A stretch of 19,823 nt of DNA from IMG/VR virus record IMGVR_UViG_2585427795_000005; one strand, given 5' to 3'. Source of the DNA: a virus. Its lineage: Duplodnaviria; Heunggongvirae; Uroviricota; Caudoviricetes. Position 1 is the stretch's first letter; each line of letters begins with the position of its first letter. Of the stretch, positions 10,728-16,766 are shown in pieces. The translations under genes and the position numbers were made by a program. The notes under the pieces are model-generated. The model was given only the letters and a program-made list of their open reading frames with translations. It made no database searches and was not told the DNA's origin.

Positions 10728-12290
10728 ATGAAAATGACAAGTATTCAACAACGTGCAGAGCTTCATCGTCAAATCTGGCAAATTGCTAACGATGTCAGAG
10801 GTTCGGTCGATGGATGGGATTTTAAGCAATACGTTCTGGGCGCGCTTTTCTACCGTTTTATCAGCGAAAATTTTTCCAGCTATATTGAAGCCGGTGATGA
10901 CAGCATCTGTTATGCGAAACTGGATGACAGCGTAATTACTGATGACATTAAAGACGATGCCATCAAAACCAAAGGCTACTTCATCTACCCAAGTCAGCTT
11001 TTCTGCAACGTAGCTGCGAAAGCAAATACCAATGACAGACTGAATGCAGATTTAAACAGCATCTTCGTTGCTATCGAAAGTTCTGCTTACGGTTACCCTT
11101 CAGAAGCTGACATCAAAGGTTTGTTTGCTGATTTCGATACCACCAGTAACCGCCTGGGTAACACCGTTAAGGATAAAAATACCCGCCTGGCCGCGGTTCT
11201 GAAAGGGGTTGAAGGATTAAAACTTGGCGACTTCAACGAACATCAGATTGACCTGTTCGGCGATGCCTATGAGTTCCTGATTTCTAACTATGCGGCGAAT
11301 GCCGGTAAGTCCGGCGGCGAGTTCTTTACACCGCAGCACGTCTCTAAGCTGATTGCACAACTGGCAATGCACGGCCAGACCCACGTTAACAAAATCTACG
11401 ACCCGGCAGCAGGTTCCGGTTCGCTGTTGTTGCAGGCTAAAAAACAGTTTGATGACCATATCATCGAAGAAGGCTTTTTTGGTCAGGAGATCAACCATAC
11501 GACCTATAACCTGGCGCGTATGAACATGTTTTTGCACAACATCAACTACGACAAGTTTGATATCAAGTTGGGCAATACGCTGACTGAGCCGCACTTCAGA
11601 GATGAAAAACCGTTTGATGCCATCGTTTCTAACCCGCCGTATTCGGTGAAATGGATTGGCAGCGATGACCCGACGCTGATTAACGATGAACGTTTTGCCC
11701 CGGCTGGCGTTCTGGCCCCCAAATCCAAAGCTGACTTTGCGTTTGTATTACATGCGCTGAACTATCTTTCTGCCAAAGGTCGTGCTGCGATTGTCTGCTT
11801 CCCGGGCATTTTTTACCGTGGCGGCGCGGAGCAGAAAATCCGTCAGTATCTGGTTGACAATAACTATGTCGAAACCGTGATTTCACTGGCACCGAACCTG
11901 TTCTTTGGCACCACCATTGCCGTAAATATTCTGGTGCTGTCTAAACATAAAACGGATACCAAAGTTCAGTTTATTGACGCCAGCGAACTGTTCAAAAAAG
12001 AGACTAACAACAACATCCTGACCGATGCCCATATCGAAAAAATTATGCAGGTATTTTCCAGCAAAGAAGATGTTGCCCATCTGGCAAAATCTGTCGCGTT
12101 TGAGGCCGTTGTCGCGAATGACTATAACCTGTCAGTGAGCAGCTATGTAGAAGTGAAAGATAACCGCGAAACTATCGATATTGCTGAGCTAAATGCTGAG
12201 CTGAAAACCACGGTCAGCAAAATCGACCAGTTGCGTAAAGATATTGATGCGATTGTGGCTGAAATTGAAGGCTGCGAGGTGCAGAAATGA
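10728..12290 (+). CDS. hsdM: Type I restriction-modification methyltransferase subunit HsdM (type IC, EcoR124-like)
   Basis: 520-aa ORF with AdoMet motif DPAAGSG and catalytic NPPY; overlaps hsdS by ATGA. The true start may be the second ATG at 10734. Confidence 0.93.
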
Positions 12291-13528
12291 GCGAGTTGAG
12301 TTATCTGGAAAAATTGCTGGATGGGGTTGAGGTTGAGTGGGTACCTGTATCAGAACTATTTCAAATTAAAAATGGGTATACACCTTCAAAATCCAAGAAA
12401 GAATTTTGGGAGAATGGAACCATTCCATGGTTCAGACTAGAAGATGTCAGAGTCAATGGTAGGGAATTAAATGATTCTATCCAACACATAAATCCATTAG
12501 GAGTTAAAGGTTGTCTGTTCCCGAAAAACTCTATTTTCATGTCTACAACAGCTACCATTGGGGAGTATGCTTTAGTAAGGGTCCCTTATTTAACAAATCA
12601 ACAAATCACAAACTTTTCCATTTCTGAAAAATTCAGTGAAGCGGTCAATATAAAATATATTTTTTATAGGTTTTATGATTTCGGCAAGTGGTGTACGGAG
12701 AATGCTAATAAAAGTGGTGGAGTATCTATAATTGGACTCAAAAAACTGTCTCAATATCAGTTCCCAATCCCTTACCCGGATAATCCGGAAAAATCCCTTG
12801 CCATCCAGTCTGAAATCGTTCGGATTCTGGATAAATTTACTGCACTTACCGCTGAGCTTACCGCTGAGCTTACCGCTGAGCTTAACATGCGTAAAAAACA
12901 GTATAACTACTATCGCGACCAGTTGTTGAGTTTTAAAGAGGGCGAGGTTGAGTGGAAAACTTTGGGAGAAGTGGCTCAATACTCGAAAACAAGAATTAGT
13001 TTCGAACTACTTGATGAAAGGAATTATGTTGGCGTAGATAATCTGCTGCAAAACAGAGCAGGAAAATCATTATCTAATCATGTACCGACATCAGGTAAAT
13101 TAACGGAGTTTATACCTAACGATATACTGATTGGGAATATCCGCCCATATTTGAAAAAAATTTGGCAAGCAGATTGTATCGGTGGAACAAATGGCGATGT
13201 ATTGGTTATTCGTTGCATAGATAGCTCAATAAATACCAGATATCTATATCAGATTTTGGCAGATGACAAATTCTTTGAATACAACATGCAGCATGCTAAA
13301 GGAGCAAAAATGCCGCGTGGCAGTAAAGAGGATATAATGAAATACCCAATCCCTGTACCGCCACTCACCTTGCAAGCTCGCATTGTCGAAATACTCAACA
13401 AATTCGATACCCTGACAAACTCCATCACCGAAGGTCTTCCGCGTGAAATCGAGTTGCGCCAGAAACAATACGAATACTACCGTGATTTACTGTTCAGTTT
13501 CCCGAAGCCTGAAACTGTAAGTAATTAA
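12287..13528 (+). CDS. hsdS: Type I R-M specificity subunit HsdS (type IC), with three TAEL repeats in the central conserved region
   Basis: 413 aa; conserved N-terminal, central ([28 protein letters not shown]...[15 protein letters not shown]) and C-terminal ([35 protein letters not shown]) blocks flank two AT-rich target-recognition domains. Confidence 0.93.
12845..12884 (+). repeat. Three tandem copies of the 12-bp unit CTTACCGCTGAG plus a partial fourth, encoding (L)TAEL x3 in HsdS
   Basis: Perfect direct repeats at 12845..12856, 12857..12868 and 12869..12880. Confidence 0.95.
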
Positions 13529-13649: not shown

Positions 13650-16600
13650 ATGACTCATCAAACACACACCATTGCTGAATCCAATAACTTTATCGTCCTT
13701 GATAAGTACATCAAAGCTGAGCAAACAAGCGACAGCTACCAGAGCGAATCGGACCTGGAACGTGAACTGATTCAGGACCTGCGGAATCAGGGTTATGAAT
13801 TTATTTCCGTAAAATCACAGTCGGCAATGCTGTCTAATGTTCGGGAACAGCTTCAGAGCCTCAATGGTGTGATGTTTAATGACAGCGAGTGGCGGCGCTT
13901 CACGGAGCAGTATCTGGACAACCCCAGCGATGGTATTCTGGATAAAACCCGTAAAATCCATATCGACTATATCTGCGACTTTATTTTTGACGACGGGCGA
14001 CTTGAGAACATCTATTTGATAGATAAAAAGAATCTCATGCGCAATAAGGTGCAGATTATCCAGCAGTTTGAACAGACGGGTTCTCATGCTAACCGTTATG
14101 ACGTCACGATCCTGGTTAATGGTTTACCGCTGGTGCAAATCGAACTAAAAAAACGCGGGGTGGCGATTCGTGAGGCTTTCAACCAGATACATCGTTACAG
14201 TAAAGAGAGTTTTAACAACGAAAATTCCCTGTTTAAGTATCTGCAACTGTTTGTCATTTCTAACGGCACCGATACCCGTTATTTTGCCAACACGACAAAG
14301 CGCGATAAAAACAGTTTTGACTTCACCATGAATTGGGCGAAATCAGACAATACGCTGATTAAAGACCTCAAAGACTTTACCGCTACCTTTTTCCAGAAAC
14401 ATACTCTGCTGAATGTTCTGGTGAACTACAGCGTTTTTGACAGTAGTCAGACGCTACTGGTGATGCGACCGTACCAGATTGCCGCCACCGAGCGCATTCT
14501 GTGGAAAATTAAGAGTTCCTTTACAGCGAAGAACTGGTCAAAACCGGAAAGCGGTGGGTATATCTGGCACACTACCGGTTCTGGTAAAACCCTCACCAGC
14601 TTTAAAGCCGCGCGTCTGGCAACAGAGCTGGACTTTATTGATAAAGTCTTCTTTGTGGTCGACAGGAAAGACCTCGATTACCAGACCATGAAGGAATATC
14701 AGCGTTTTTCGCCAGACAGCGTCAACGGCTCGGAAAATACCGCAGGCCTTAAACGAAATCTGGATAAGGACGATAACAAAATTATCGTCACTACTATTCA
14801 GAAACTCAATAACCTGATGAAAGCAGAAAGCGACCTGCCTGTATACAATCAGCAAGTGGTGTTTATATTTGATGAATGTCACCGCAGCCAGTTTGGAGAA
14901 GCGCAGAAAAACCTGAAGAAGAAATTCAAACGCTATTATCAGTTTGGTTTTACCGGCACCCCTATTTTCCCGGAAAATGCCTTAGGCTCAGAAACGACCG
15001 CCAGCGTATTTGGTCGTGAATTGCATTCGTATGTAATTACCGATGCGATTCGTGATGAAAAAGTGCTCAAATTCAAGGTGGACTACAACGATGTGCGGCC
15101 ACAGTTTAAGTCTTTAGAGACAGAAACTGACGAGAAAAAACTAAGTGCGGCTGAAAATCAGCAGGCGTTTCTTCATCCCATGCGTATACAGGAAATCACG
15201 CAATATATTCTGAATAATTTCCGCCAGAAAACCCACCGCACCTTCCCTGGCTCAAAAGGTTTTAATGCTATGTTGGCAGTGAGCAGCGTGGATGCTGCAA
15301 AAGCCTATTACGCGGCGTTTAAACGGTTACAAGAGGAAGCAGCTAATAAATCGGCTACCTATAAACCGCTGCGTGTTGCGACAATCTTCTCCTTTGCTGC
15401 CAATGAAGAACAAAATGCCATTGGTGAAATTTCCGATGAAACTTTTGATACCAGCGCAATGGACAGCAGTGCTAAAGAGTTTCTTGACGCTGCAATTCGT
15501 GAGTATAACAGCTATTTTAAAACTAACTTCAGCACCGACGGTAACGGTTTTCAGAACTACTATCGCGATTTAGCCCAACGGGTTAAAAATCAGGATATCG
15601 ATCTGTTAATTGTCGTGGGGATGTTTTTAACTGGCTTCGATGCTCCAACATTGAACACGCTATTCGTCGATAAAAACCTGCGTTTTCACGGCTTGATGCA
15701 GGCATTTTCCCGCACCAACCGTATTTATGATGCAACTAAAACCTTCGGTAATATCGTCACTTTCCGGGATCTGGAACGCTCAACTATTGATGCCATAACG
15801 CTGTTTGGTGACAAAAACACCAAAAATGTGGTTTTAGAAAAGAGTTATGCAGAGTATATGGAAGGCTTTACTGATGCTGCCACTGGTGAAGCTAAGCGCG
15901 GCTTTATGGCAGTAGTTTCAGAACTGGAACAACGGTTCCCTGACCCTGCCAGTATTGAAAGTGAAAAAGAGAAGAAAGACTTCGTTAAACTGTTTGGTGA
16001 ATACCTGCGTGCCGAGAACATCCTGCAAAACTATGATGAATTTGCCACGCTGAAAGCCCTGCAACAAATCGATCTTAGCGATCCTGTTGCAGTAGAAAAA
16101 TTCAAAGCAGAACATTATGTGGATGATGAAAAGCTCGCTGAATTGCAAACAATTCGTCTCCCTGCTGATCGCAAGATTCAGGATTATCGTTCTGCCTATA
16201 ACGATATTCGCGACTGGCAGCGCCGTGAGAAAGAAGCTGAGAAAAAAGAGAAATCAACCACTGACTGGGATGACGTAGTTTTTGAGGTCGATTTGCTGAA
16301 GTCTCAGGAAATAAACCTGGATTATATCCTTGGACTGATTTTCGAACACAACAGACAAAATAAAGGCAAGGGCGAAATGATCGAAGAGGTTAAACGCTTA
16401 ATTCGTTCAAGCCTAGGGAACCGTGCTAAAGAGGGCCTGGTGGTCGATTTTATTCAGCAAACGAACCTGGATGATTTACCGGACAAAGCCAGCATCATTG
16501 ACGCATTCTTTACGTTTGCTCAACGCGAACAGCAACGTGAAGCAGAAGCATTGATAAAAGAAGAAAATCTCAATGAAGATGCAGCAAAACGCTATATTCG

Positions 16601-16766
16601 CACGTCTTTAAAACGCGAATATGCCACAGAAAATGGCACAGAATTAAACGAAACATTACCAAAACTTAGTCCGTTGAATCCGCAATATAAAACGAAAAAA
16701 CAGGCAGTTTTCCAGAAAATCGTCTCGTTTATTGAGAAGTTTAAAGGCGTAGGCGGAAAAATATAG
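13650..16766 (+). CDS. hsdR: Type I R-M restriction subunit HsdR (type IC)
   Basis: 1038 aa; nuclease motif region (D...IELK), Walker A TGSGKT, DECH box; AAAGGA SD; separated from hsdS by a 121-bp gap consistent with its own promoter. Confidence 0.93.

Follow-up and report, generated by a model that had tools for sequence, protein, structure and literature searches.

A type IC restriction-modification cassette between phd and pap

The DNA analyzed here is a 19,823-nucleotide record from IMG/VR (IMGVR_UViG_2585427795_000005; hereafter, the window, meaning this whole stretch), assigned to the Caudoviricetes and built on a backbone like that of phage P1. Between the antitoxin gene phd and the phosphatase gene pap it carries hsdM, hsdS and hsdR, the three genes of a type I restriction-modification (R-M) system. 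The initial annotation of this DNA had listed the gene order hsdM-hsdS-hsdR, an ATGA coupling of hsdM to hsdS, an HsdR of 1038 amino acids and TAEL repeats in HsdS, and we recovered each of these features (Table 1). The hsdM stop codon and the hsdS start codon share the ATGA overlap, which reads GCAGAAATGAGCGAG. For the additional suggestion that hsdR forms a separate unit, the intergenic gap that precedes the gene is confirmed, while a promoter of its own is presumed; the ORF (open reading frame) map places neither an ORF nor a prrC-like gene in this gap. P1 annotation and alignment also bear out the placement of the cassette beside phd and doc, at the position that humD has in P1.

Table 1. 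Positions of genes and other features in the interval from doc to pap of the window.
Feature	Position (nt)	Strand	Basis
doc	9950-10330	minus	Pfam Fic/DOC; collinear with P1 doc
phd	10330-10551	minus	Pfam PhdYeFM_antitox; collinear with P1 phd
phd promoter region, P1-derived, ending with the humD stop codon	10552-10627	minus	blastn and base-by-base P1 alignment; P1 annotation (Pphd, humD)
Cassette leader 5' of hsdM, presumed site of the hsdM-hsdS promoter	10628-10727	plus	Homology to L003 from 10629
hsdM, N6-adenine methyltransferase subunit, 520 aa	10728-12290	plus	Pfam HsdM_N and N6_Mtase
hsdS, specificity subunit, 413 aa	12287-13528	plus	Pfam Methylase_S, two matches
Target-recognition domain 1 (TRD1) of hsdS	~12341-12736	plus	TRD survey
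Three TAEL repeats of hsdS	12848-12883 (aa 188-199)	plus	
Target-recognition domain 2 (TRD2) of hsdS	~12959-13351	plus	TRD survey
hsdS-hsdR gap, 121 bp, presumed site of a separate hsdR promoter	13529-13649	plus	99.2% identical in L003
hsdR, ATP-dependent translocase/endonuclease subunit, 1038 aa	13650-16766	plus	Pfam HSDR_N, SWI2_SNF2/ResIII, T1R_D3-like and EcoR124_C
Cassette tail, confined to the P1-type context; contains a hairpin with an 11-bp stem (16782-16809)	16767-16841	plus	Junction alignments and fold; absent from L003
P1-derived right flank (pmgT leader)	16842-17031	minus	P1 annotation mapped by alignment
pap (phosphatase); to the right of the cassette, the first P1 gene that is conserved	17031-17537	minus	Pfam HAD_PNKP; collinear with P1 pap

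Family assignment and integrity

Searches against all PDB chains place the subunits close to the EcoR124 enzymes. HsdR aligns without a gap from residue 1 to 1038 with residues 1 to 1038 of EcoR124 HsdR (PDB 2w00, 2273 bits), and HsdM aligns in the same gapless manner from residue 1 to 520 with residues 1 to 520 of EcoR124II HsdM (PDB 7bst, 1150 bits); in the printed HsdM alignment 512 of the 520 residues are equal, leaving 8 substitutions. Moreover, HsdR contains the EcoR124_C domain (PF12008; 241.7 bits in Pfam). The similarity of HsdS to EcoR124 HsdS in the PDB sequence search is restricted to residues 1-48, 123-232 and 350-413, so that conserved N-terminal, central (with the TAEL repeats) and C-terminal regions alternate with two target-recognition domains (TRDs). 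With the subunit signature, the gene order and the organization of HsdS all as in EcoR124, the proposed assignment to the type IC family stands. Originally, that family was delimited by criteria that included whether subunits complement those of EcoR124 and whether antibodies cross-react with it (PMC3874165).

We detected no frameshift in hsdM, hsdS or hsdR, all three of which are full-length ORFs, and the end-to-end match of HsdM and HsdR to EcoR124 proteins of the same length answers the concern, raised at the outset, that the cassette might be broken. HsdM encodes the methyltransferase motifs I and IV (DPAAGSG at 225 and NPPY at 302). In HsdR, the PD-(D/E)xK and QxxxY nuclease residues are present (D151, E165, K167, Q179 and Y183, in EcoR124I numbering), as are K220 and the motor motifs, namely a GSGKT Walker A sequence at 310-314 (K313) and DECH at 408. 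All catalytic motifs that were checked are in place, and enzyme activity is predicted from them. By these signs the type IC system is intact, and its predicted specificity differs from that of EcoR124.

The cassette stands in for pmgT through humD of P1

Alignment with P1 (blastn) shows homology from window position 3797 to 10627 (P1 94800-87970), which resumes from 16842 to 19383 (P1 84482-81941). The intervening cassette, 10628-16841, stands in for P1 84483-87969, that is, pmgT through humD, nearly exactly at gene boundaries. In the base-level alignment the left break lies 1 nt past the stop codon of humD, which is retained (TTA on the plus strand, 10624-10626), and the right break comes about 5 nt short of where the start codon of pmgT would be. 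Aligning the flanks to P1, as the initial annotation had proposed, thus defined the breakpoints as 10627/10628 and 16841/16842 (P1 87970 and 84482). The left edge is confirmed independently by a second phage-plasmid, described below as L003, which shares only 10629-16766 with the window.

The same boundaries are already written into the annotation of P1 itself. A misc_feature in the RefSeq/GenBank record of P1 gives 98% identity between 87969-88647, on the doc/phd side, and the sequence that lies upstream of the EcoDXXI hsd locus; another describes 84263-84482, on the pap side, as 96-98% identical to sequences downstream of EcoDXXI hsd and of R124/3 hsdR; the boundaries of these features coincide with the breakpoints in the window. 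A survey of P1-like phage-plasmids designates the pmgT-humD segment "variable region 8" (PMC9603915), and in P1 every gene of the segment tested by CRISPR interference was non-essential, upfM being outside the tested set (PMC10695390).

A long-known and common arrangement

An hsd cassette has long been known in this slot and occurs there very often; the only new item is the rare hsdS allele described below. Tyndall et al., in a paper of 1997, are said to have reported type IC hsd loci bordered by P1 DNA, to go by its title as cited elsewhere. A passage of a review cites this 1997 paper for the tie between R-M systems and mobile elements (PMC12707154), and three further papers cite it as well. 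Two P1-family (Punavirus) phages, vB_EcoM-673R5 (ON470615; hereafter, 673R5) and phi456 (OR339795), have the cassette at this very place, with the same junctions. Among plasmids in PLSDB, the block from doc to pap is held to at least 80% by 478, and the whole 19.8-kb window, at the same threshold, by at least 149 records. An 80-mer spanning the left junction is nearly complete in 722 PLSDB plasmids and one spanning the right junction in 460, and for both junctions the plasmids include non-mobilizable as well as conjugative replicons. The left junction also occurs in 706 of 5,426 complete Escherichia coli genomes, almost always on plasmids. Because 673R5, phi456, the plasmid junctions and the P1 annotation all show the same arrangement, the novelty initially attributed to it does not hold: reference genomes of the P1 family already have the hsd operon at this position.

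These comparisons also bear on how the cassette came to be there. It had been suggested that the element traded the native type III system of P1, EcoP1I, for a type I system from a conjugative plasmid, and so came to pair two addiction modules in an unusual way. P1 and P7 indeed have res/mod and lack hsd; 673R5, which has hsd, yielded no match to res/mod when phage records were searched with P1 res-mod DNA; and it was on plasmids that the prototypes of type IC were first described (PMC3874165). Such a trade is nevertheless very hard to reconcile with the map, and we give it almost no credence. The cassette displaces pmgT-humD, not res/mod, which lies beyond cre-ref-mat in a separate variable region (PMC9603915). 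The two systems can co-occur, since phi456 carries both, with a res/mod 100% identical to that of P1 and an hsdR 99.8% identical to that of the window. The window itself ends in a copy of the insertion sequence IS1 before the res/mod position, so that the res/mod locus falls outside it. Nor is the arrangement unusual, as the hsd-type junction is the majority state: of 978 E. coli genomes with the phd-side flank, 706 (72%) show it, and the others among the matches listed run into humD. The claim that the element exchanged its defence cargo accordingly fails.

The proposed origin from conjugative plasmids holds insofar as the prototypes are plasmid-borne, but those plasmid loci themselves bear P1 flanks according to the P1 annotation. 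Similarly, phd/doc is an addiction module as claimed, whereas for type IC systems reviews describe no post-segregational killing. What they document for EcoR124I is restriction alleviation and a harmless establishment through assembly control; the host killing that they discuss concerns other plasmid-borne R-M systems, in cited studies on type II (PMC12707154, PMC3874165). In practice, anyone annotating P1-like phage-plasmids should look for hsdMSR between phd and pap as the more frequent content and for humD-pmgT as the less frequent one.

A rare hsdS allele shared with an unrelated phage-plasmid

To place the hsdS allele, we compared the 120 closest homologues of HsdS in a collection of 5.8 billion protein clusters, scoring a TRD as matched at 90% identity or more. 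TRD1 occurs in 25 of the 120 and TRD2 in 76, yet the two stand together in a single homologue, P0001, which differs from HsdS of the window by two residues (Y163C and E190A). P0001 is also alone among the 120 in having three TA(E/A)L repeats; 103 have two. In the plasmids of PLSDB and the complete E. coli genomes searched, hsdS of the window was absent at a coverage of 80% or more, and TRD1 and TRD2 match separate sets of plasmid and genome records. The allele is a rare recombinant, and modular evolution of this kind has been described before for type IC systems. Two TAEL repeats correspond to an N6 spacer in the target and three to an N7 spacer (PMC3874165), so a spacer of 7 bp is predicted here. 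Prediction of the recognition sequence was attempted and abandoned: the PDB search returned the conserved regions of EcoR124 together with distant TRD matches, and the 120 homologues are only generically named.

P0001 is encoded by L003 (GCA_045610365.1, JBIHJD010000005.1), a phage-plasmid of about 107 kb and of the Cyrano/CMS-2020a type, whose backbone is unrelated to that of the window and whose cassette region lies at 6566-14480. The two cassettes form a mosaic in which hsdS is 99.7% identical, as against 95.0% for hsdM and 96.9% for hsdR, which indicates a recent transfer of hsdS between phage-plasmid backbones that are unrelated to each other. Both backbones also have the leader and the hsdS-hsdR gap in conserved form. 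The pair is a modest but tangible instance in which families of phage-plasmids have recently exchanged a specificity gene. Directly 5' of its cassette, L003 has a humD/hot/upfN-like module that is 83% identical to the P1 module displaced in the window.

Predicted function and expression

We regard the hsd genes, with high confidence, as a functional-looking type IC R-M cassette that serves as lysogenic-conversion cargo of a P1-like phage-plasmid, in the known variable slot between phd and pap. Its presumed mode of action is taken from knowledge of EcoR124I, not from data on the window. One HsdS and two HsdM would assemble into an M2S methyltransferase that N6-methylates one adenine per strand of a bipartite target, whose half-sites TRD1 and TRD2 would set. 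Joined by two HsdR, M2S would become R2M2S, which would stay at an unmethylated target, pull DNA in with ATP and cut at distant sites. A lysogen would in this way be protected against unmodified incoming DNA, while the DNA of the element itself, and presumably that in its virions, would be modified. Between elements, the cassette would be exchanged when homologous recombination takes place within the conserved flanks of P1 DNA, and new specificities would arise by recombination in the conserved segments of hsdS (TRD swapping) and by alteration of how many TAEL copies are present.

Several points weigh against this interpretation. Expression and restriction activity are predictions from sequence, and a promoter scan, which found fewer sites overall than in shuffled sequences, returned no sigma-70 consensus match above its threshold in the hsdM leader or in the hsdS-hsdR gap; since the scan gave nothing there, the hsd promoters are placed by inference. 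No TRD lies near a structurally or biochemically characterized one in the PDB sequence search, which leaves the recognition sequence unassigned. Finally, since it is bordered by IS1 left and right and its pmgS is stopped at codon 6, the carrier may not be an infectious phage but a prophage that is defective or rearranged.

The state of the carrier is worth setting out. The IS1 copies lie at 1-410 and 19384-19823, both oriented alike on the minus strand, the left one with insA at 79-354 and an inverted repeat ending at 410, the right one with the C-terminus of insB at 19399-19776. They bracket a P1-like segment of 18.9 kb (456-19383), and the right copy interrupts pmgQ; the pair could be two simple insertions or could mark an IS1-bounded rearranged fragment. 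In pmgS (17610-18872, minus strand) the in-frame stop gives MSTSA* in place of the 420 amino acids of P1 PmgS.

These lesions invite the alternative of an inert relic: a cassette that looks intact but is silent or does not restrict (being unexpressed, for instance, or capable of methylation only), on a decaying P1 remnant between two IS1. The failure of the promoter scan 5' of hsdM and of hsdR fits such a relic, as does the decay of relatives, in that hsdS of phi456 has an IS5-family insertion and hsdM and hsdR of 673R5 are annotated in pieces. On the other hand, the three ORFs are full length with their catalytic residues intact, and the leader and gap are conserved on two unrelated backbones. 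The insertion and the pmgS stop need not disable the phage, since pmgQ and pmgS are non-essential in P1 (PMC10695390). We therefore consider an inert relic improbable and retain the reading of the cassette as functional cargo.

Where transcription of hsdR ends can be proposed from a terminator scan, which found in the P1-derived flank, at 16960-16982, a strong terminator-like hairpin that is on the plus strand and has a T-run; this is the likeliest hsdR terminator. The hairpin of the cassette tail (16782-16809) was considered for the same role and rejected, as neither strand shows a T-run downstream of it.

The right flank raises a further possibility. It retains PpmgT and, at 17015-17031, a C1 operator with 2 mismatches to the consensus (operator search), and downstream of PpmgT a 28-amino-acid hydrophobic ORF, MNTAFKIIMAAIYFWLFSITFGGIVAHG (16932-16846, minus strand), has an AGGAG ribosome-binding site. 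Operator, promoter and ORF all read toward the 3' end of hsdR, and no intrinsic terminator for the minus strand was found between PpmgT and that end. Conceivably, inactivation of C1 at induction would bring about convergent or antisense transcription that lowers hsdR, tying restriction to the lysogenic or lytic state, and, separately, the TRD pair with three TAEL repeats would specify an uncatalogued target. This combination we hold to be improbable, and the state-dependent antisense effect on hsdR is itself unlikely. The C1 operator is one of nine such sites within 1827-19172 (at most 3 mismatches), where 0.17 would be expected by chance.

Additional observations on the carrier and its relatives

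The nine operator sites fit an intact P1-type immunity network, and c1 lies at 4515-5366. The 28-amino-acid ORF of the right flank is unannotated in P1 RefSeq and falls inside the 84263-84482 stretch equated with sequence downstream of EcoDXXI hsd. The longest remaining pmgS ORF has 371 amino acids from a GTG start. At the left end of the window, a 45-bp stretch (411-455) matches neither IS1 nor P1-like phages, homology to which starts at 456-459. The segment 456-1996, beyond c8/ref, diverges from P1, with P1 homology from 1996; the ref allele (1168-1728) resembles that of phiW39, and an ORF of 207 amino acids (383-1006), which extends into IS1, is without a match in Pfam.

Among the damaged relatives, hsdS of phi456 is split by an IS5-family element of about 1.2 kb that is mis-annotated as 'baseplate hub protein' (4442-6879 of that record). 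The fragments in which hsdM and hsdR of 673R5 are annotated (12938-18889) reflect frameshifts or sequencing errors.

Comparison with known type IC systems

Among the closest known systems are the cassettes of 673R5, phi456 and many PLSDB plasmids, whose hsdM and hsdR are 97-99.8% identical to those of the window. Their hsdS genes are where they part: in 673R5 both TRDs differ, and in phi456 TRD2 is common with the window whereas TRD1 is different and is interrupted by the IS5-family element, the copy in the window being intact.

EcoR124I and EcoR124II, the type IC prototype from plasmids R124 and R124/3, have the same gene order and the same subunit lengths of 520 and 1038 amino acids, and EcoR124II has three TAEL repeats, as in HsdS of the window. 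Both TRDs differ, however; in the PDB sequence search TRD1 of the window has weak similarity to the C-terminal TRD of EcoR124, and none was detected for TRD2. Because both TRDs are unlike those of EcoR124, the target in the window is predicted not to be GAA N6/7 RTCG. The carriers also differ, a P1-like backbone here and a conjugative plasmid for EcoR124, although the sequence 3' of hsdR is the same one that the P1 annotation equates with R124/3.

EcoDXXI, judged through the P1 annotation, has an hsd locus flanked as in the window, and it too has three TAEL repeats (PMC3874165); its target is TCA N7 RTTC, and its TRDs presumably differ from those found here. EcoprrI, a chromosomal member of the same family that also has three TAEL repeats (PMC3874165), is accompanied by the anticodon nuclease gene prrC, to which the window has no similar gene. 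Set beside these systems, the window illustrates in textbook fashion that type IC systems travel together with P1 flanks and that they diversify through TRD swapping and changes in TAEL repeat number.

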